Origin: Chloroflexota bacterium
GTDB lineage: Bacteria; Chloroflexota; Anaerolineae; Aggregatilineales; J027
Length of the DNA: 64,000 nucleotides
NCBI GenBank assembly: GCA_013112715.1
Contig: JABFGB010000030.1
Coordinates: 4,126-68,125, forward strand
Direction: 5' to 3'
The notes under the pieces were generated by a model, which searched no databases, was not told where the DNA came from, and saw only the letters and a list, made by a program, of their open reading frames with translations. Both the position numbers and the translations under genes were made by a program. Within the stretch, counting starts at the first letter, position 1; the number at the start of each line of letters is the position of its first letter. Positions 9,397 through 48,953 of the stretch are shown here, one piece after another.

Positions 9397-9554
9397 AGGC
9401 TTGTCCGACATTCGAACTTGGATGATACTCGGGTAAACCGCATGGGTAAGTAGTTTTGAGTACGGACGCAACATGTTGCGTCCCTACGATATTGATCCAG
9501 CCGCTTGACTGATGTCCCTGATTCATGCGATTTCCACCAATGTCGGACAAGCCT
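9397..9554 (-). mobile_element. MITE-A copy (158 bp) nested in a REP hairpin
   Basis: TIR aggcttgtccgacatt/aatgtcggacaagcct, flanked by ccgg(g); central gtacggacgcaacatgttgcgtccctac hairpin. Confidence 0.8.
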
Positions 9555-36035: not shown

Positions 36036-36282
36036 GATCGGTTCTCCTTGGATGGATAGGTAGACATTTTGCGGATGTGGTTTTGCTTTTCCGCCCATTC
36101 TACCCATACGTCGAACGGCCCCCCGGAAAAATGACATCTGTTCGGAACAAATTTTCTATCACTCATCTATCTCTTATCTGGTGTTCTATTTTGTGTGAGA
36201 CCCAACCCTATCCCCAAACATCGGGACGGCTTCAATAGGCTAGATTCTGCCTCCCCCTCGCCAGATGGAGAGGGGGCCGGGG

Positions 36283-36440
36283 TTCTCAAGGGTAGGTTTT
36301 TCGCAGGACGCCAGAGAATAAATTCTCCGGCTACTTCCGCAAAGTCGGTTGAAACCGACTAGGGATATGATTCACTTCCCTAGTCCAATTCATTGGACTT
36401 CGCCATGATAGCCGCCGACTTCAGTCGGTGGCCCTCGTAA
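36283..36440 (+). mobile_element. MITE-B copy, right end missing
   Basis: Left TIR ttctcaagggtaggttt plus hairpin core matching 45638-45814. Confidence 0.75.
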
Positions 36441-39596: not shown

Positions 39597-39869
39597 CTAT
39601 TTCAAAGAAGCGAGAATCCGTTCATATTCGTCGTGTGAACCAATCCAGAACCAAATAATTGTGTCCTCTTCAAGGATGCCCAAGACTCGATAGTCAAGAG
39701 TTACACGAGCCGAATATATGGGTAAGCTGCGTCCCACTCTTTTGAAATGGAGACTGGGGTGATGCGGGTCATCCTTAAAGAATTGGTACGCTTGGCGGGC
39801 TTGCTTGCGAATTTGCAGGGGCAGACGCCGAAACGCCTTGCGGAATCGTACATCTAGTACGGATTTCAT
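39597..39869 (-). CDS. RelE/ParE-like toxin
   Basis: RFRKAFRRLP...DP.HPSLHFK...YSARV..DYR.LG......WFWIGSHDEY. Confidence 0.88.
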   Translation of the reverse strand: MKSVLDVRFRKAFRRLPLQIRKQARQAYQFFKDDPHHPSLHFKRVGRSLPIYSARVTLDYRVLGILEEDTIIWFWIGSHDEYERILASLK

Positions 39870-40087
39870 CTGTCTGCCCGGTCAACGGGAATCGTCTTGC
39901 CCGCTCGATGTTCAGCCAGTGCTTCTTTGGCCCATTGTTCGAGGAGGTCTTGTGAACCTGCCATTAATTCGTCCCACCGCTGCTCAGATTCGATCTCGGC
40001 AAGAATACGCTCGGCAAGGGCGTCCTGTTCCTCAGCGGGCAGTTTGGCAGCTTCGTGAAATGCTTTTTCGAGTAGTCGGGTGAGCAT
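39866..40087 (-). CDS. Antitoxin of the RelE/ParE-like toxin
   Basis: MLTRLLEKAF....LP..EQDA.A; ATGA overlap; ggaga RBS. Confidence 0.85.
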   Translation of the reverse strand: MLTRLLEKAFHEAAKLPAEEQDALAERILAEIESEQRWDELMAGSQDLLEQWAKEALAEHRAGKTIPVDRADR

Positions 40088-40112
40088 GATAATTCTCCTA
40101 TAATCCCGTCTA

Positions 40113-40391
40113 TTATTCTTCGGAATCGTGGGTGGGCGGTTTGTGTTCCAATTGTTCGCGGATGTCCGGCAGCGACTCATAAAACTGCTCGGCCCAGTGA
40201 ATTTGTTCGTCAATTTCGGCCTGATGCTCATAACAAAAGGCCCATGCTGCGTAAACTTCGGCGGGGGTCAACCCATACGCCTGACAAACGCGCTCCACAG
40301 GCCATTCGGGGTCATCTATGTAATCCACCAAAAACGCGACGCTCATGCCTTGACCCTCTAAAAACACAGTGCCTACTTTGCATAATCATAC
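40113..40391 (-). pseudogene. DUF433-like gene, probably frameshifted near the 5' end
   Basis: GLTPAEVYAAWAFCYEHQAEID; ATG starts behind the agaggg RBS are out of frame with the main ORF (GTG at 40367). Confidence 0.5.
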
Positions 40392-40545: not shown

Positions 40546-41922
40546 ATGTGGCGTGTGGCATTGAAAATGGGTGGAATGACGTTATTGCTACTCTGCGGTT
40601 TGTTGTGGCTGGCCCGTCGAAATCAACACGAAGAATTGTGGTTAATCTACAGTCAAACAGCCATTGGAGAAGGCGGTATAGGTACAAGTATTGGGCGCGT
40701 GCGCTGGAACGATTTGGCGGGTGAACCTTTTACACCAGATGATTCGAACTACGAACAGTATAAAGGCATTGTCTTGCAGCCGGATGGTTGGTTAGTTTAC
40801 AGGGAAGATAACATACCCACACGGGCTTCACCAATCTTTCAGATGCGCCCTAATGGTGTCCAACGCAGGATATCTACTGCCTTGCCACATGATGCTACTC
40901 CAGCAGGATTTTCCCCTGATGGCGAATGGATGTATTACACCAAGCGCGACAATATTTACCATCGTCAACTGTATCGGATGCGCCTTGATGGAAGCCATGT
41001 CGAGCAATTGGCGGAGGAAATTAGCAATGCCGATGTAGCGATTGTGGATTGGTCATCAGATAATCAATGGGTCTATCTCCAATATGGCGCGGATTTGGAG
41101 AGTGTCGAAGCGTCGGAGATTGCCCGAATGCGGCCCGATGGCAGTGATTTTCAATTCATTACCGAAGGAAATATACCGTTCGACTGGGAGAACCAATCGG
41201 TAGGGTTTGCGGGCCTCTCATCAGACAATCAATGGGTTTATTACTATACCTACGCTGGCATTTATCGAATTCGCCCAGATGGCTCCGATATACGGTTCGT
41301 AATTCCGGGTCGCTGGACACGTCTAGTGGGATGGTCGGCGGACGGGCAGTGGATTATTGCGCGTCTCCAAGTTGGAGATGACTTATTCTATTTTCGAGCC
41401 AGTGTGACCCAATCAACCATAAAGCAACTTGGGAAAACCGCCCTGCGATCCAAAGGTTCTTGGTGGTTCGATGCGTGGCTGAGTCCGAGTCGAAAATTAC
41501 TAGTGTATCAATATCTTGGCCCACATAATCCTCCTACGGGTGAGTTGCTAAACAATAGTGATCCCGTTTCTTGGGATATGGATTTGATGTTAGCCCCGAC
41601 AGATGGTAGCCTGCCGACCATTTTGACGGCGGGAATGTACTCTGAATCAGTAGTAGGGTGGTCTCCTGACGAACAATGGGTCATCATCTCCGTAAGGGGC
41701 CAGCTATATCGTGTCCATCTCGACAGCACCAAATTGGAAAAATTGCCCGCCCCATACGACAGTTCTATTTTGGGCTGGTGGACGATGCCGAAGAAATCTG
41801 TTCATCTAGGCTGGTTGGCGGTCTTAGCGGTAATGCTAGTGGGTCTTGGCTACTTGCCAGTGACCCCATTTGTCTCATTTAAACAAATTTCAACGCCCTC
41901 TCTTGACAAAAATTTAGACTAG
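40546..41922 (+). CDS. Membrane-anchored TolB-like beta-propeller protein
   Basis: N- and C-terminal TM segments; repeated (W/F)S.DGEW.Y...MR.DG motifs. Confidence 0.85.
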   Translation: MWRVALKMGGMTLLLLCGLLWLARRNQHEELWLIYSQTAIGEGGIGTSIGRVRWNDLAGEPFTPDDSNYEQYKGIVLQPDGWLVYREDNIPTRASPIFQMRPNGVQRRISTALPHDATPAGFSPDGEWMYYTKRDNIYHRQLYRMRLDGSHVEQLAEEISNADVAIVDWSSDNQWVYLQYGADLESVEASEIARMRPDGSDFQFITEGNIPFDWENQSVGFAGLSSDNQWVYYYTYAGIYRIRPDGSDIRFVIPGRWTRLVGWSADGQWIIARLQVGDDLFYFRASVTQSTIKQLGKTALRSKGSWWFDAWLSPSRKLLVYQYLGPHNPPTGELLNNSDPVSWDMDLMLAPTDGSLPTILTAGMYSESVVGWSPDEQWVIISVRGQLYRVHLDSTKLEKLPAPYDSSILGWWTMPKKSVHLGWLAVLAVMLVGLGYLPVTPFVSFKQISTPSLDKNLD

Positions 41923-41954
41923 GCTAAACTATAAGTAAGGTTAGTCTGGACTTA
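41903..41954 (+). promoter_or_regulatory. feoA promoter with two tandem DtxR/IdeR-like boxes
   Basis: TTGACA at 41903, TAAACT at 41925; 19-mers TTAGACTAGGCTAAACTAT (41914) and TAAGGTTAGTCTGGACTTA (41936), each 15/19 to TWAGGTWAGSCTWACCTWA. Confidence 0.75.
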
Positions 41955-41965
41955 GGTTTGAAGGA

Positions 41966-42235
41966 TTGGATACCGTGCGATTAGATGAACTGCAAAAGGG
42001 TCAAACGGGGGTGGTCAAAGCCCTACACATTACTGGCCCCAATCGCCGCCGCCTCATGGACTTAGGCATCCTACCCGGCACGCACATCGAAGTCGAGATG
42101 AAAAGCCCACTGGGTGATCCGGTGGCCTATCGTGTACGCGGCGCGGTCATCGCCCTTCGCCAAGTTCAGGCCCGTGAAATAGAGATTACTTTGGATGTCC
42201 CCTCAACGGAGGCTGCTGAAAATGTCCACTCGTGA
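41966..42235 (+). CDS. feoA: FeoA
   Basis: RRRLMDLGILPG..I......PLGDPVAY.VRG..IALR; TTG start. Confidence 0.95.
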   Translation: MDTVRLDELQKGQTGVVKALHITGPNRRRLMDLGILPGTHIEVEMKSPLGDPVAYRVRGAVIALRQVQAREIEITLDVPSTEAAENVHS

Positions 42236-43046
42236 AACCACCGTCAATACCCACTGCCAGACCTGTCCGGCCTATCAAAATGCCAAACTGCATCGGCTGG
42301 GGATTGATGTCAGCAACTTCGATTATGCCATTGCGCTGGCGGGCAACCCCAACACGGGCAAAAGCACGCTGTTTAACGCCATGACGGGCCTGCGTCAGCA
42401 CGTCGGCAATTGGACGGGTAAAACCGTCGCCCGTGCCGAAGGAGCTTACAATTTTAACGGCAAGAATTACAAGGTGGTGGACTTGCCGGGGACATATTCG
42501 CTGCTTTCAACCAGCCAAGACGAAGAAATTGCCCGCGATTTCATCCTGTTTGGTCAGCCCAACGCGACAGTGGTGGTCGTAGATGCGACCCGCCTTGAAC
42601 GTAACTTGAATTTGACCTTGCAGATTTTGGAAATCACGGATCGTGTGGTGGTCGCGCTCAACTTGATTGATGAAGCCGAACGACACGGCCTGCAAATTGA
42701 TGTGCGTGCCCTCAGCAAGCAGTTGGGGGTGCCCGTCGTGCCGATGGTGGCGCGGAAGGGCGTCGGCCTAGAGGATTTATTGGGCAATATCGAGGCCGTC
42801 ATCACCGGGCAATATGTGACCCGCCCGCACCGTGTCAAACATTATGACCCCCGGTTAGAAAAGGCTATCAGTCAGTTGGCGACGCAGCTAGAAGACCAAT
42901 TTCCCGGCCTGCCCAATACGCGCTGGGTAGCCCTGCGCTTGCTGGATGGCGACCCCTCGATTGAACAGGCCGTGCGCGAAGGCACATTGGGTGAATTGTC
43001 GGGGGTAGGGCGCTCCGATGAGGTCTTGATGCTGCAAACGGCGTAG
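42222..43046 (+). CDS. feoB: FeoB N-terminal GTPase/GDI half (split FeoB)
   Basis: G1 GNPNTGKS, G2 NWTGKTV, G3 DLPGTY, G4 NLID; N-terminal CxxC; no membrane domain. Confidence 0.93.
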   Translation: MSTRETTVNTHCQTCPAYQNAKLHRLGIDVSNFDYAIALAGNPNTGKSTLFNAMTGLRQHVGNWTGKTVARAEGAYNFNGKNYKVVDLPGTYSLLSTSQDEEIARDFILFGQPNATVVVVDATRLERNLNLTLQILEITDRVVVALNLIDEAERHGLQIDVRALSKQLGVPVVPMVARKGVGLEDLLGNIEAVITGQYVTRPHRVKHYDPRLEKAISQLATQLEDQFPGLPNTRWVALRLLDGDPSIEQAVREGTLGELSGVGRSDEVLMLQTA

Positions 43047-43067
43047 AGAATTCATCCTCACGCCCCA

Positions 43068-43222
43068 GAACTTGTCCAGTGTTGGGGGAATCGCATGATT
43101 TGGCGGAATTGAAGGTGTACGTGTTTCATCTTCGTAGGGACGCAATATATTGCGTCCGTACTTAAAACCCTTTATCCATGCGGCTTATGAGAATGACCCA
43201 AAACCGCATGTCAGACACGCCT
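43068..43222 (+). mobile_element. Diverged MITE-A copy
   Basis: gaacttgtcc...gtagggacgcaatatattgcgtccgtac...agacacgcct. Confidence 0.7.
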
Positions 43223-43267
43223 CCCCATGCTACTCGGTAGACCGGGAGATGGGGACAAATCAAAAAA

Positions 43268-43283
43268 TTTAGGCGCATCTAAA
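43268..43283. promoter_or_regulatory. DtxR/MntR/SirR-like palindrome upstream of the multicopper oxidase
   Basis: TTTAGGCGCATCTAAA in an A-rich context, 14 bp before the ATG. Confidence 0.55.
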
Positions 43284-43297
43284 AAATAGGAACAAAC

Positions 43298-44407
43298 ATG
43301 AGCAACAACGCAGTAACACGACGACGATTCATGGCAGGTACATTAGGGACAGGGGCCGCCGCGCTCCTTGCCAGATTTGCCAACAAAGCCAGCGGACAGG
43401 ATGGGGGTCAATATAACGGCAACGGGGAGCATCGCGGTGGCGCTCATTCCGACGGCGTATCTGGCCCAATGGGGCGGGTGGATCATGCCCGCAACGGTTT
43501 TCACCCCACCGAAATCCTGACCGATTTTAACTATGGGGATCGGGTGGTCGAAGAAAATGGGCGCACCATCCGCGAATATGACTTCATTGCGATTGACCAA
43601 GAGGTCGAAATCGCCCCCGGTATCTTTTTCCCGGCGTGGACGTTTAATGGACGCATCCCCGGCCCGACCATTCGCTGCACCGAAGGCGATTTGATTCGCA
43701 TCAATTTTATTAATGCCAGCGAACACCCGCATACGATTCATTTTCATGGCATCCACCCCGCCAGTATGGACGGTGTGCCGATCATGGAAAATATGCAGCA
43801 CATGCCGCGTGATCTGACCGGCCCCGGCATGATTCCATCCGGCGAAAGTTTCACCTATGAATTCACTGCCGAGCCATTTGGGATGCACCTGTATCACTGT
43901 CATGCCATCCCGCTCAAACGGCATATTCACAAAGGCCTGTATGGCGCGTTTATCATTGACCCGCCCGAACCGCGACCCGAAGCGCACGAGATGGTGATGG
44001 TCATGAACGCCTTTGATACCAACTTCGACAATGCCAACGAGGTCTACGCCGTCAATACCATCGCCTTTGCTTATAACAACGACCCGATTCAGATTAAGGT
44101 CAATGAATTGGTGCGGATTTATCTGGTCAATTTGGTCGAATTTGATTTACTGAACTCATTCCATCTGCACGCCAACTTTTTTGATTATTACGACACGGGC
44201 ACAACGCTGGAGCCGACTTTGCGAACCGTAGACACGATTATGCAAGTGCAGGGCCAACGCGGGATTTTGGAGTTCCGCTATAGATTCCCCGGTATGTTTA
44301 TGTTCCACGCCCACGTCAGCGAATTTGCCGAATTGGGCTGGATGGGCATGTTTCATGTGGTCGAGGATGCGACCATTATCGGCATGGAGGGCATGAATCA
44401 TGACTAG
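43298..44407 (+). CDS. Tat-exported two-domain multicopper oxidase
   Basis: Tat motif TRRRFM; HTIHFHGIH, YHCH...H....L in domain 1; FHLH and FHAH in domain 2. Confidence 0.92.
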   Translation: MSNNAVTRRRFMAGTLGTGAAALLARFANKASGQDGGQYNGNGEHRGGAHSDGVSGPMGRVDHARNGFHPTEILTDFNYGDRVVEENGRTIREYDFIAIDQEVEIAPGIFFPAWTFNGRIPGPTIRCTEGDLIRINFINASEHPHTIHFHGIHPASMDGVPIMENMQHMPRDLTGPGMIPSGESFTYEFTAEPFGMHLYHCHAIPLKRHIHKGLYGAFIIDPPEPRPEAHEMVMVMNAFDTNFDNANEVYAVNTIAFAYNNDPIQIKVNELVRIYLVNLVEFDLLNSFHLHANFFDYYDTGTTLEPTLRTVDTIMQVQGQRGILEFRYRFPGMFMFHAHVSEFAELGWMGMFHVVEDATIIGMEGMNHD

Positions 44408-45593
44408 CATGAATGCAACGTCAGCATCGCCTTCCCCGATTTGGCAGCGTTGGTTAATGGCGCTTGGCCCATTGGTCGTACTGATTGCGATTGTGGCCCT
44501 GTTTCTTAGCAGCGACCCGCTGTCAGTCTTTACGGGCGAAGTACCGCCGATTGAAGAATTGCAGACCCAACGGGTGGTGCTGAATTCGGATGGCATTACC
44601 ATCCACTTGCTGAACAATGGCCCCGACCCCGTGACCATCGCGCAGGTCTTGGTAGACGACGCCTATTGGCATTTTGAGATCACCGATGGCGACCAAAAGA
44701 TCAATCGTCTCGAACGCGCCACGCTGGAAATCCCCTATCCTTGGGTCGAAGGCGAAGCGCATGAAGTGGTGATTCTCAGCAGCACGGGCGTGACGTTCCC
44801 CGTTGAAATTGCGGTCGCGTTGGAGACCCCCGAAGCGACCTCCAAGCAGTTTACCGCCTACGGCCTGTTGGGGATTTACGTCGGCATTATTCCGGTGGCG
44901 CTCGGCCTGCTGTGGTATCCATTTTTACGCACCATCGGCTCGCGCTGGATGAATTTTGTGCTGGCGCTGACCGTCGGGATGCTCGTCTTTTTAGCGGTGG
45001 ATACTATCCTAGAAGCCCTTGAAGTCGCCGTCGAAGTACCGGGCACATTTCAGGGCGGGCCGCTGGTCTATTTGGTCACGCTGCTCAGTTTCTTGGCGAT
45101 TGTCGCGGTGGGCCGCAACAGCAAACGGCCCGATTCGCGCCTGTTCCTTGCCTACATGATTGCATTGGGCATCGGCTTTCACAATTTGGGTGAAGGTCTG
45201 GCAGTCGGCACGGCCTTTGCATTGGGTGAGGCGTCATTGGGGGCATTTTTGGTGGTCGGGTTTACGCTGCACAACATCACCGAAGGCATTGGTATTGCCG
45301 CCCCGATTGCCAAAGAACGGCCCAAGCTGATTCATTTTGTGCTGCTGACCCTGTTAGCAGGCGCTCCGGCGATTATCGGGACGTGGTTGGGTGGTTTCGC
45401 CTTTGACCCGCTACTGGCCGTGATTTTCTTGAGTATTGGTGCGGGGGCGATCTTACAGGTCGTCTATGAAGTGACCCGCTTGATTTTACGCAGCGCCGAA
45501 CGTGAAAATACACCCGCCCTGTCGTGGATGAATTTGGGCGGCTTGACGGCGGGTATCGCCATCATGTATTTCACGGCGTTTCTCGTCGCGTAA
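44400..45593 (+). CDS. ZIP family metal transporter with N-terminal extracytoplasmic domain
   Basis: IGFHNLGEG, LHNITEG; N-terminal TM plus a ~100-aa beta-rich domain; 8-bp overlap with the oxidase gene. Confidence 0.92.
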   Translation: MTSMNATSASPSPIWQRWLMALGPLVVLIAIVALFLSSDPLSVFTGEVPPIEELQTQRVVLNSDGITIHLLNNGPDPVTIAQVLVDDAYWHFEITDGDQKINRLERATLEIPYPWVEGEAHEVVILSSTGVTFPVEIAVALETPEATSKQFTAYGLLGIYVGIIPVALGLLWYPFLRTIGSRWMNFVLALTVGMLVFLAVDTILEALEVAVEVPGTFQGGPLVYLVTLLSFLAIVAVGRNSKRPDSRLFLAYMIALGIGFHNLGEGLAVGTAFALGEASLGAFLVVGFTLHNITEGIGIAAPIAKERPKLIHFVLLTLLAGAPAIIGTWLGGFAFDPLLAVIFLSIGAGAILQVVYEVTRLILRSAERENTPALSWMNLGGLTAGIAIMYFTAFLVA

Positions 45594-45637
45594 TAACCTC
45601 ACCCCAAACCCCTCGCCAGATGGAGAGGGGGCCGGGG

Positions 45638-45814
45638 TTCTCAAGGGTAGGTTTTTCGCGGGTCGCCAGAGAATGAATTCTCCGGCTATCCCTGCAAAGT
45701 CGGTTTAAACCGACTAGGGAAGTCACATATATCCCTAGTCCAATTCATTGGACTTTGTCTCGATAGCCGCCGACTTCAGTCGGTGGGCACATATCAGAAA
45801 CCTACCCTTGAGAA
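45638..45814 (+). mobile_element. MITE-B, complete (177 bp, 17-bp TIR, 11-bp flanking direct repeat) inside a REP
   Basis: ttctcaagggtaggttt/aaacctacccttgagaa; gggggccgggg at 45627-45637 and 45815-45825. Confidence 0.8.
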
Positions 45815-45869
45815 GGGGGCCGGGGGGTGAGGTAAACCATTATCGTAAACCATAGGAGTATGTTTCAAC

Positions 45870-46289
45870 GTGAACCGACGTAACTTTTACTGGTTTTCTT
45901 GGCTGCTGGTGCTGTTGGCCCTTGTATTGGTGGCCTGTGGCAAAGACGCCAGCGCCGATGACCTACCCGCCCCGGATTCGGTGGGCGACCCCATCGCGGG
46001 ACAACAAATCTTTGTGACCCGCCATGACGAAGTGCCGTCCTGTAGTTTTTGCCACAATGTAGACAGCGACAAGGCCAAAACCGGGCCGTCCTTGCAGAAT
46101 ATCGCCAACGTCGCCGGAAGTCGGGTGGATGGGATGAACGCGGAGGAATATCTGCGCCAATCCATCCTTGACCCGAATGCCTATATCGCCGATGGCAAGG
46201 CCCGCAGCCGCATGTATGCCCATTTCGCCGATGTGTTAACGCCGGAAGAAATTGACAATCTCGTGGCCTATCTGCTGACCCTGCGCTAA
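45870..46289 (+). CDS. Lipoprotein monoheme cytochrome c
   Basis: Lipobox LVLVAC, CSFCH heme motif, GPSL, distal Met (SRMY); aggag RBS, GTG start. Confidence 0.92.
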   Translation: MNRRNFYWFSWLLVLLALVLVACGKDASADDLPAPDSVGDPIAGQQIFVTRHDEVPSCSFCHNVDSDKAKTGPSLQNIANVAGSRVDGMNAEEYLRQSILDPNAYIADGKARSRMYAHFADVLTPEEIDNLVAYLLTLR

Positions 46290-46307
46290 GGACATCCTCA
46301 CCCCCAG

Positions 46308-46464
46308 ACGCTTGGCCGATATTGGTGGAAATCGCATGAATAAGCAGGGCTGGGTTGACGGCAATAGTGGTTTCGTAGGGACGCAACATGTTGCGTCCGT
46401 ACTCAAAACCCCGTCACCATGCGATTTCCTAAGCATCACGGACAATCGAATATCGGACAAGCCT
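46308..46464 (+). mobile_element. MITE-A copy (157 bp)
   Basis: acgcttggccgatatt...aatatcggacaagcct; central GTAG hairpin. Confidence 0.78.
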
Positions 46465-46540
46465 CTGTCCCCCTCCATGCAATAGGGAGGGGTTGGGGTG
46501 GGGATATTTTGGAATTTGACTGAAGGAAAGCAAGTAAACC

Positions 46541-47950
46541 ATGCCCAACAATTTACTAAACAACGCGGCCCAACTGCGCCAACAGGTGGGTGATAACCTA
46601 CACGACAGCATCATGGAGGCCATTTATGCCGATGCCGCGCACATCCGCGATTCCGTCGTCACCAGCACGGAGCATCAGCCGCGCCTCAAATTTGACCAGC
46701 GCCTCGATCAACTCCTGACCAGCCGCCGTTGGGGATTTTTGGTGATGGCCCTGCTGTTTATGATGGTCTTTTGGATCACCATCGCGGGCGCGAACATCCC
46801 CTCTGCCTTCCTCGGTGATTTGCTAACCGTGCGGGTGTATGAAGGCCTGCACGATCTCGCCAATACCCTGCACGCCCCCAGTTGGTTAAGCGGCCTGCTG
46901 ATTGATGGCGTCTATCTGGCGACGGCGTGGGTGATCGCGGTCATGCTGCCCCCGATGGCGATCTTCTTCCCCCTGTTTACCCTGTTGGAAGATTTCGGCT
47001 ATCTGCCGCGTGTCGCCTTCAACCTGGATCGCCTGTTCAACAAAGCGGGGGCGCATGGCAAGCAGTCGCTCAGTATGATGATGGGTTTCGGCTGTAACGC
47101 GGCGGGCGTTGTCGCTACCCGTATTATTGATAGCCCGCGTGAACGTCTGATTGCGATACTCACCAACAACTTTAGCATCTGCAATGGACGCTGGCCCACG
47201 CTGATTCTGATGGCAACCATCTTTGTCGCTTCGACGGCCCCCATCGGCATTGCCAGTTTCGTCGCGGCCATGAGTGTCGTCACGGTAGCGGTCTTGGGCA
47301 TTCTGACAGCCCTCATCGTATCGGGATTCCTCTCGCGCACATGGCTCAAAGGCGAGGCCTCCGTGTACAGCCTTGAACTGCCGCCCTATCGCCCTCCGCA
47401 GATTTGGCGCACGCTCTACACCTCCCTCATTGACCGCACCATGATTGTCTTGTGGCGGGCAATTGTCATGGCGGCCCCGGCGGGTGCGATCATCTGGCTG
47501 ATTAGCAATGTGGATATCAGCGGCACACCCATCGCCGAGCACATGGTCAATTTACTGAACCCCCTCGGCATTTTGATGGGCCTCAACGGGGTCATTCTGG
47601 TGGCCTATCTGGTCGCCATCCCCGCCAACGAAATCATCATCCCGACGGTGTTGATGCTGACCCTTAATATCAGCCGGTCGGAGCTTGCCAAGCGCGGCGT
47701 CATGCTGGAACTGGATGATAATCTGGCGCACAAAGTCTTGGTGGAGGAGGGCGGTTGGACGGTGCTAACGGGCATTAACCTGATGCTGTTTAGCCTATTG
47801 CACAACCCATGCAGCACCACCATCATGACCATCTGGAAGGAAACCAAAAACGCCCGTTGGACAATCGCCTCGGTCGCCATCCCCTTAACGCTCGGTTTCG
47901 CCGTCACCATTCTCACCGCCACCATCGCCCGTCTGTTCGGCTGGGCCTAA
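46541..47950 (+). CDS. feoB: FeoB C-terminal membrane (Gate) half (split FeoB)
   Basis: LLEDFGYLPRVAFNLD, GFGCNAAGV..TRII, ELPPYR.P, LLHNPC. Confidence 0.95.
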   Translation: MPNNLLNNAAQLRQQVGDNLHDSIMEAIYADAAHIRDSVVTSTEHQPRLKFDQRLDQLLTSRRWGFLVMALLFMMVFWITIAGANIPSAFLGDLLTVRVYEGLHDLANTLHAPSWLSGLLIDGVYLATAWVIAVMLPPMAIFFPLFTLLEDFGYLPRVAFNLDRLFNKAGAHGKQSLSMMMGFGCNAAGVVATRIIDSPRERLIAILTNNFSICNGRWPTLILMATIFVASTAPIGIASFVAAMSVVTVAVLGILTALIVSGFLSRTWLKGEASVYSLELPPYRPPQIWRTLYTSLIDRTMIVLWRAIVMAAPAGAIIWLISNVDISGTPIAEHMVNLLNPLGILMGLNGVILVAYLVAIPANEIIIPTVLMLTLNISRSELAKRGVMLELDDNLAHKVLVEEGGWTVLTGINLMLFSLLHNPCSTTIMTIWKETKNARWTIASVAIPLTLGFAVTILTATIARLFGWA

Positions 47951-48000
47951 ATTTTCTCGACCCAGCCCTCACGTAAATCGCTCATAACCCCCTCATCACG

Positions 48001-48127
48001 GCATTTCGTAGGGGCAAGTCTCAGACTTGCCCAATTTTTAACTTTGTAACAGAGCTACGGGGTTTTGTGAGCCTCATTGATGAGGCTTTTTCCAACACAA
48101 TAGCCCGATGGTTTGACCGTCGGGCGT
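48001..48127. repeat. REP cluster: GTAG hairpin plus partial four-hairpin repeat
   Basis: gtaggggcaagtctcagacttgccc; agcctcattgatgaggct; gcccgatggtttgaccgtcgggc. Confidence 0.7.
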
Positions 48128-48174
48128 CAATACGACTTTCTTTCTCCCTCATCGTTTCCGGGGCAGGGGGCCGG

Positions 48175-48465
48175 GGGCTTGTCTGACATTGGTGGAAATC
48201 GCATGAATAAGCGGGACTTGGTTAGCCACACCATTGGTTTCGTAGGGACGCAACATGTTGCGTCCGTACCCAAGACCCTTTATCTATGCGATTTTCTACA
48301 AATCACCGTCAAGCGAATACCGGACAAGCCTCCGGGGGCTTGTCTGACATTGGTGGAAATCGCATGAATAAGCGGGACTTGGTTAGCCACACCATTGGTT
48401 TCGTAGGGACGCAACATGTTGCGCCCGTACTCAAAACCCAGTCGCCATGCGGTTTCCTAAGCCCC
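48175..48465 (+). mobile_element. Tandem MITE-A pair (48175-48331 complete, 48336 onward truncated) joined by ccgg
   Basis: Near-identical first ~100 bp of both units; junction ggacaagcct-ccgg-gggcttgtc. Confidence 0.85.
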
Positions 48466-48953
48466 TCCCTAATGCTTTGGGGAGGGGGTTGGGGTGGGGA
48501 TTCTATAGCAGTTCTCAAGTTGACTGGCCTGCATTTTCCACCAGATGCAGCACGGTGGATTGATCCGCCGTGTTTATTGTGGGTCATCCCTACCACACCT
48601 TCCACTCTCTTAACGGCCACCGCCGCGCCCTCTCATATGACGCACACCCATAAATCCGTAACAACTGTTACGAATTCCCTTCTCACTTATATAACCCCCA
48701 CTTATAGATCACATGTTCTAATATGCTTAAGCCACAATTGCGATTAAAAACCTTGCACATGCCCTTTTCGCCTCCCCCTCTCTGAAAGCCTGCGGAGAGG
48801 CCGGACGGGGGTGACTCATCGGCTGCCAAAAAGTGAGGGGATACAAAAATCCCCCTTGTGACCCAGCAACACTTCCTACTCTCAGCCCCCTTCAGACCAC
48901 CAATCGTTGACCATAATGGAGACATTCACTTTACGTTCTAGTTGGAGGGGATA

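Follow-up and report, generated by a model that had tools for sequence, protein, structure and literature searches.

Why should a multicopper oxidase (MCO), a ZIP metal transporter and a cytochrome c be encoded between the two halves of FeoB? This question is raised by a 64,000-nucleotide stretch of contig JABFGB010000030.1 from a Chloroflexota bacterium of the order Aggregatilineales (assembly GCA_013112715.1; the whole stretch is called the window in the following), where six co-oriented plus-strand open reading frames (ORFs) at 41966-47950 encode in turn FeoA, the GTPase half of FeoB (feoB-N), the MCO, the ZIP, the cytochrome c and the membrane half of FeoB (feoB-C), with domains assigned by Pfam and NCBIfam. 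An earlier note on this DNA, right as to the content and orientation of these genes, read them as a single undescribed module for redox-coupled uptake of iron or manganese. We consider it likely, instead, that the locus is a mosaic peculiar to this lineage, in which two independent units for divalent-metal uptake stand under the same repressor. The first would be an operon of feoA, feoB-N and feoB-C that occurs throughout the order and makes FeoB as two proteins, and the second a mobile cassette of translationally coupled MCO and ZIP genes, accompanied in the family of the window by a lipoprotein cytochrome c.

The feo genes of the window resemble the usual Feo system in their parts, namely the same FeoA, a G domain with a helical domain and a membrane domain of the Gate/FeoB_C type, but differ from it in that FeoB comes as two proteins. 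The gene feoA (41966..42235, plus strand) encodes an SH3-like protein matching Pfam FeoA (PF04023) at 75 bits, and it overlaps feoB-N by the 14 bp given in the earlier note if the latter starts at the ATG at 42222, the probable start within a longest ORF of 42195-43046. So placed, feoB-N (42222..43046, plus strand) encodes the GTPase and helical domains (FeoB_N, 212 bits; FeoB_Cyto, 38 bits), and its translation shows the G1-G4 motifs of a G domain in GNPNTGKS, DLPG and NLID; feoB-C (46541..47950, plus strand) supplies the membrane half (Gate PF07670, 91 bits in two stretches; FeoB_C PF07664, 44 bits). The whole-protein profile TIGR00437 is fully covered by the two halves jointly, from 1 to about 230 by the N half and from 221 to 594 by the C half, and its cut-off of 316 bits is reached by neither (216 and 193 bits). 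The G domain and the membrane domain lie on separate ORFs not only here but also in 12 relatives, since a search of each half against 40 relatives returned orthologues at 61-73% identity as separate frames in 12 genomes, which span several families of the order. Eleven of these 12 positive loci were examined in detail, and in all 11 the genes feoA, feoB-N and feoB-C are contiguous, the feoB-C of the window being 62-73% identical to the ORF directly after feoB-N, and the stop codon of feoB-N overlaps the start codon of feoB-C, usually as ATGA. We can therefore conclude that in this order FeoB is normally made as two proteins from translationally coupled genes, and the remark of the earlier note that split feoB genes are usually adjacent is borne out here to the point of overlap.

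The exceptions are confined to a single genus. Relatives are labelled by G and L codes, G000 being the 5.55-Mb genome of the window and G004 (L018) a genome of the same genus, and among the relatives examined only these two have an interrupted feo locus, with MCO-ZIP lying inside it. The insert of G000 measures 3.5 kb, and the proteins of G004 are 92-97% identical to their G000 counterparts. In a neighbouring genus, represented by G006, an intact split feo operon is found on one contig and MCO-ZIP-cytochrome c on another, and split Feo without MCO-ZIP is furthermore present in G017 and others. Since the relatives are contiguous, only G000 and G004 are interrupted and the units of G006 lie on separate contigs, the simplest reading would be that the ancestor of the genus received a 3.5-kb cassette with its own operator precisely where feoB-N and feoB-C meet in ATGA, and that this cassette now keeps the two feoB genes 3.5 kb apart instead of overlapping. 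Such an insertion would have cut no reading frame, since the uninterrupted operons of all 11 relatives encode FeoB as two proteins to begin with.

The MCO-ZIP pair, on the other hand, has a distribution of its own. Five ZIP orthologues were aligned (alignment A1) and the resulting profile was scanned against one genome per prokaryotic species, which gave at least 539 relatives; the best 80 of these loci were inspected, and the locus counts given in the following refer to them. All are bacterial, from Chloroflexota, Rubrobacteraceae, other Actinomycetota, Acidobacteriota, Bacteroidota and others, and an MCO gene lies directly upstream of the ZIP gene on the same strand in 79 of the 80, the sole exception being a contig that starts inside the ZIP region. 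In the window the MCO gene (43298..44407, plus strand) and the ZIP gene (44400..45593, plus strand) overlap by exactly the 8 bp of the earlier note. What lies beside the pair varies, the third gene being YceI in 7 loci, a cupredoxin in 4 and Nramp in 2, and often there is none. A cytochrome c gene follows ZIP only in the family of the window, where the orthologues of G006 and G011 are 51-52% identical, and it is better described as a family-restricted accessory than as part of a six-gene module. Within 9 kb of MCO-ZIP, the only FeoB genes found apart from that of G004 are unrelated, full-length and on the opposite strand, in Bellilinea and Levilinea. The 79/80 adjacency and the lack of a related FeoB nearby outside the genus both argue that the oxidase belongs with ZIP and not with Feo. 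In G006 (contig C1, locus L013, 4319-12518) the MCO-ZIP-cytochrome c genes are found between a pair comprising MbnP and MbnH/PCuAC and a 720-residue FG-GAP protein with a C-terminal cytochrome c domain, so that the location of the three-gene cassette differs from one genus to its neighbour. A separate observation concerns G040 (contig C28, locus L017, 7620-9929), where MCO and ZIP each lie in two frames with in-frame stops and look pseudogenised; the split feo operon of this genome is intact.

That the two units nonetheless belong to one regulatory circuit is suggested by the sites upstream of them. A palindrome T[TA]AG-N6-CT[AT]A occurs upstream of MCO in 50 of 72 loci, at a background of 0.023 per 360 nt, with the consensus AAATTTAG-N6-CTAAATTT (TTTAG-N6-CTAAA). 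The window has two such sites. The first, TTTAGACTAGGCTAAA (41913..41928), overlaps the spacer and the -10 box of a promoter-like site before feoA (41903..41930, plus strand; TTGACA, a 16-nt spacer and TAAACT, 10 of 12 matches), which is the sole promoter-like site on the plus strand within 41700-48900, and the second, TTTAGGCGCATCTAAA (43268..43283), is found 15 nt before the MCO start codon and is identical in G004. When a weight matrix built solely from MCO-upstream sites of other genomes was scanned over the whole 5.55-Mb genome, the feoA site ranked first (26.1 bits) and the MCO site third (22.4 bits). Among the 11 relatives whose split feo operon is uninterrupted, 6 furthermore have this palindrome just before feoA, and since the motif also precedes MCO elsewhere, both units probably shared a regulon before they were joined. 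The motif has the geometry of the enterobacterial MntR box AACATAGCnnnnGCTATGTT (PMC1698941), with which it shares a palindrome of 20 bp built around TAG-N6-CTA, although its arms read TTTAG rather than CATAG. The earlier claim that the locus looks metal-repressed is therefore supported at the level of candidate MntR-box-like operators, one lying over the feoA promoter and one before MCO. An operator of the MntR type rather than the Fur type also sets this operon apart from the usual feo operons and suggests control by a manganese-type repressor, and its products are putative Fe(II) transporters by family. A manganese-transporting FeoB has a precedent in Porphyromonas FeoB2. A classical DtxR/IdeR iron box was considered for the feoA site, which agrees with it at about 16 of 19 positions by eye, but rejected, given that the dyad seen across loci is TTAG-N6-CTAA and that the regulators are of the manganese type. 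Neither did we retain a genome-wide regulon as support, since the exact palindrome occurs 6 times in the genome against 4.6 expected and the genes at the other high-scoring sites, which flank rhomboid protease, MacB-type ABC transporter, MBL-fold and PIG-L genes, are uninformative. The second-best site, GTATTTAGGTTAACCTAAAAAA (C11:19696-19717), has a rhomboid protease gene on one side and a divergent gene for a MacB-type ABC transporter on the other and is possibly an extra member of the regulon.

The regulators that adjoin the pair in other genomes point in the same direction. A DtxR-family repressor is its commonest neighbour, found in 19 loci (12 upstream and 7 downstream), and all 19 have Asp at the position of DtxR Met10 and Asp or Glu at that of Cys102. 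Acidic residues at these two positions are the manganese-selective pattern. They are shared with the repressors MntR, ScaR and SloR, and the adjacent repressors indeed score 116-142 bits against 5zr4, 8pvt, ScaR and SloR, of which 5zr4, ScaR and SloR are the closest structures, compared to 63-71 bits against IdeR and DtxR; they differ from MntR/ScaR/SloR-type repressors in that most of them carry a C-terminal FeoA/SH3-like domain. The genome of the window encodes a repressor with the same manganese-type residues on contig C6 (93858-94589), and this C6 protein, dependent on Mn(II) or possibly Fe(II), would be the candidate for shutting off both units. A second DtxR paralogue is encoded at C5:53051-53725; the equivalents of DtxR Glu105 and His106 read Gly and Ala in it, and it may be metal-blind.

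Downstream of these sites, the promoter and motif scan of the region gave no operator or good promoter before the cytochrome c gene or feoB-C. The strongest terminator-like site of the region on the plus strand is a hairpin after feoB-C (48012..48032; a 9-bp stem followed by a T run), and with this as the only strong terminator and no promoter before the last two genes, transcription probably reads through from the upstream promoters. In the mechanism that we favour, the C6 repressor would close both operators when metal, most likely Mn(II) or else Fe(II), is sufficient; upon scarcity it would leave, and transcription would proceed from the feoA and MCO promoters through to the terminator at 48012, so that the cell would make two importers, one being the split Feo and the other the ZIP together with the oxidase. 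How an oxidase might serve such a response is less evident. It cannot simply feed the ZIP, since ZIP imports M(II), and our best guess is that it would act together with ZIP at the outer face of the membrane, where it would condition the metal pool at the mouth of the transporter. One possibility is that it oxidises Fe(II) or Cu(I) and so takes away competitors for entry into a promiscuous ZIP; another is that its substrates are organic ligands, which would release their metal once oxidised.

The oxidase itself, a protein of 369 residues, has a twin-arginine signal (RRRF), from which export by the Tat pathway is predicted, and just two cupredoxin domains, Cu-oxidase_3 at residues 112-224 and Cu-oxidase_2 at 242-356. 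Its PDB matches are close (7rab, E 9e-126; 3gdc, E 3e-107), the T1 cysteine is placed in domain 1 within an HCH motif at residues 200-202, and H148-F-H150, H200-C-H202, H289-L-H291 and H337-A-H339 are invariant in the family alignment (A2) and align to both structures. By these sequence features the protein is a type-C two-domain MCO, and the solved members of this class, 7rab/7rac and 3gdc and the more distant 2zwn and 3g5w, have the same cupredoxin domains, HCH and HxH motifs. By analogy with the solved structures, to which its similarity is at the 65% level, it is presumably a homotrimer with the trinuclear copper cluster, for which the HxH-type motifs provide the ligands, at the subunit interfaces and active as an oxidase; our literature search found no paper for 7rab/7rac. 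The T1 site can be read as C201...H209...L214, with Leu in the axial position, and the small electron carriers of changing kind that adjoin the pair, cytochrome c and cupredoxins, suggest that a protein may also serve this site as electron donor. What distinguishes the window protein from the solved type-C enzymes is an additional 11-residue Met-rich loop, IMENMQHM VPIMENMQHMPRD, at residues ~156-166 (window 43763-43795). It falls in the stretch that separates HxH from HCH, and of the 54 family members scored only 5 have it, namely this MCO and the four most closely related to it.

Several points weigh against two divalent-metal units under one manganese-type repressor. An oxidase placed before an M(II) importer makes no obvious chemical sense, and the cupredoxin neighbours, the PCuAC/MbnPH neighbours, the archaeal literature discussed below and the Met-rich loop all point to copper. 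The genome has two DtxR paralogues, and the binding of either one to the operators is a prediction from sequence; manganese-type DtxR relatives such as SloR and MtsR respond to iron as well. The gene feoB-C has neither an operator of its own nor a convincing promoter and would depend on read-through, and the search of G004, where the contig stops behind ZIP, did not return it. Finally, the remainder of the predicted regulon, with the rhomboid protease and the MacB-type transporter on C11, is not obviously related to metals.

The alternative that survives best is that the cassette serves copper acquisition, in which case the MCO would oxidise Cu(I) or free copper from ligands, ZIP would import Cu(II) and the position within feoB would be incidental. 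It draws on a pair known from ammonia-oxidising archaea, in which MCO1, likewise a two-domain MCO, is encoded next to a ZIP permease (PMC7785015, PMC5817080 and PMC7819960, as cited there from Kerou et al. 2016); under copper limitation MCO1 was raised with a log2 fold change of 0.81 and the adjacent permease with one of 1.33 (PMC7785015), and the archaeal literature links the pair to copper and describes MCO1 as confined to Thaumarchaeota. The archaeal MCO1 also has Leu at the T1 axial position (PMC7785015), as does the window MCO with L214, but the two pairs are likened by gene arrangement and not by established orthology, and the idea of an oxidase acting ahead of a permease is itself put forward as a proposal in that literature. 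The adjacency of MCO and ZIP is accordingly already in the literature for these archaea (PMC7785015, PMC5817080). The pair of the window differs from the archaeal one in being bacterial, in recurring in at least 79 loci of several phyla and in its association with an MntR-type operator and manganese-type repressors. Within the bacteria, the cupredoxins in 4 loci and the PCuAC/MbnP/MbnH neighbours in G006 speak for copper too, as does the MxxMxxM-like IMENMQHM loop, which is similar to the Met motifs by which CueO and PcoA bind Cu(I). The loop is however absent in 49 of 54 family members, nearby copper chaperones could merely load the four coppers of the MCO, and the response of the archaeal pair to copper limitation is modest and, by the statement of its authors, unvalidated. 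Moreover, the regulators adjoining the pair are manganese-type members of the DtxR family rather than CsoR, CueR or CopY, and the operator is shared with the Feo operon. Taken together, we regard copper acquisition as an unlikely explanation of the locus.

The proposal of the earlier note itself, that all six proteins form one redox-coupled Fe/Mn uptake machine in which oxidase and cytochrome would set the oxidation state of the metal at the cell surface for both FeoB and ZIP, fares worse and appears highly improbable to us. It is true that the six genes share one orientation, that no strong terminator lies among them, that both promoters carry the same operator and that transcription of feoB-C must now pass through the cassette. 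It is also true that all genes tested are constrained, dN/dS between G000 and G004 being 0.14 for feoA, 0.09 for feoB-N, 0.056 for MCO and 0.061 for ZIP at a dS of ~0.3, values by which these four are under purifying selection and still functional genes. The six-gene order is however limited to one genus (G000 and G004), and each unit is met without the other, MCO-ZIP without Feo in ~75 of the 80 loci and split Feo without MCO-ZIP in G017 and others, while the cytochrome c is replaced elsewhere by YceI, a cupredoxin or nothing. Furthermore, M(II) is the substrate of Feo and of ZIP alike, and an oxidase would deprive both of it. The earlier note had named a gene order confined to this genome, with no co-regulation, as what would tell against its module; the order is indeed lineage-specific, but the shared operator is evidence for co-regulation. 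The notion that feoB was broken by the insertion, so that its halves are remnants being lost and only the cassette is functional, would explain the lost ATGA coupling, the lack of a recognisable promoter for feoB-C and the failure to find feoB-C in G004, but is barely credible, since all 11 relatives make FeoB in two pieces as well, neither half is truncated or lacks any of its motifs, feoA and feoB-N show the low dN/dS values just given, the contig of G004 simply ends after ZIP, and the membrane domain of feoB-C is the only one found in the G000 genome and this FeoB its sole one.

The mosaic of two units under one repressor also has to be seen against the systems in which an exported copper oxidase is encoded tightly with a metal permease, as it is here, namely Fet3p/Ftr1p, EfeUOB and FtrABCD. 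The permease of the window is however a ZIP with HNxxEG motifs and not an Ftr1/EfeU protein; the Pfam scan gave no match to the FTR1 family (REXXE-type permeases), the permease matching ZIP only. Since ZIPs carry M(II), the logic of oxidising a metal and handing over M(III) does not transfer directly. No Nramp was found when looked for in the G000 genome. Our literature search found no paper on a bacterial MCO-ZIP pair or on one joining MntR, MCO and ZIP in bacteria, and the "split feo" of PMC10353542 refers to feoA separated from feoB and not to a split feoB. What is new here is then that a split feoB has taken up an insert between its halves and that both units share an operator, together with a cytochrome c peculiar to the family and a Met-rich loop peculiar to the closest relatives.

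The ZIP protein (397 residues) is itself an N-terminally extended member of its family. Pfam Zip is matched at 34.9 bits against a cut-off of 35.1 and over residues 247-392 only, the ZupT model at 48 bits against a cut-off of 252, and BbZIP with E 3e-6. The metal-site HNxxEG motifs of TM4 and TM5, HNLGEG and HNITEG, are invariant in alignment A1, and their counterparts in the metal site of BbZIP are HNLPEG and QDVPEG. An additional ~150 residues at the N-terminus comprise a transmembrane anchor and a predicted extracytoplasmic domain of ~110 residues (~44490-44849), which AlphaFold2 models as an Ig-like beta-sandwich (pLDDT 89.6). A role of this domain as a known metal chaperone was considered, but the fold search gave only generic beta-sandwiches (FlaF/FlaG with TM ~0.6; PCuAC, CopC and DsbD-N with ~0.4-0.5) and there are no conserved His, Cys or Met residues. 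With a generic fold, and invariant residues that do not include a His/Cys/Met cluster, the modelled domain may be a docking surface rather than a metal site. A bolder extension, which we put forward as speculative and rather doubtful, would have the trimeric MCO dock on this Ig-like domain to form an oxidase-permease complex that is induced by manganese starvation, accepts small electron carriers (cytochrome c here and cupredoxins elsewhere) as plug-in partners and is co-transcribed with a two-piece GTP-gated Feo.

The remaining features of the locus concern its spacers and its surroundings. The cytochrome c gene (45870..46289, plus strand) encodes a monohaem c-type cytochrome of 139 residues (Pfam Cytochrom_C) with the haem motif CSFCH and, judging from an LVAC lipobox, probably a lipoprotein. 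It is separated from ZIP by a spacer (45594..45869) that is filled by a repeat family with 15 hits in the genome and one further copy at window ~36254-36431; the corresponding spacers of G006 and G011 measure no more than 8-16 bp. Another dispersed intergenic repeat of ~156 nt, with the core TTCGTAGGGACGCAAyATrTTGCGTCCGTAC (palindromic, GTAGGGACGCAACATGTTGCGTCCGTAC), has 7 copies in the window, and blastn gives 27 hits for it in the genome, spread over 10 contigs; in appearance it is a spacer-colonising element of the MITE or REP type. One copy lies between feoB-N and MCO (43053..43190, plus strand) and one between cytochrome c and feoB-C (46293..46505, plus strand), so that the cassette is flanked by two copies in the same orientation, and the others are found at 48177-48332 and 48338-48493 and also at 9460, 17522 and 36513. 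Insertion of the cassette by way of these repeats was considered and discarded, since the left copy is missing from the same feoB-N/MCO spacer in G004, which has the same insertion, and the repeats thus seem to have arrived later. Upstream of the locus, three small overlapping ORFs of 90, 121 and 84 aa on the minus strand (39597-40367) are of toxin-antitoxin-type appearance.

As for what this means, the MCO-ZIP pair is among the commoner unexplained gene pairs of aerobic Chloroflexota, Actinomycetota and ammonia-oxidising archaea, and its only published reading is copper uptake, which is a proposal. The locus described here amounts to a natural experiment, in which a cassette with its own operator has come to lie inside the operon of another M(II) importer that uses the same operator, and since cassette and feo share this operator, the pair is linked to regulation of the Mn/Fe type and not to that of copper. 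Furthermore, a two-piece FeoB apparently tolerates having its halves encoded 3.5 kb apart, which may be useful for studying the communication between the GTPase and membrane domains of FeoB. If the doubtful complex of MCO and ZIP were to exist, it would correspond to Fet3p-Ftr1p but be built on a ZIP and widespread among prokaryotes, and in the genus of the window one repressor would then control a complete station for redox-conditioned uptake of M(II).

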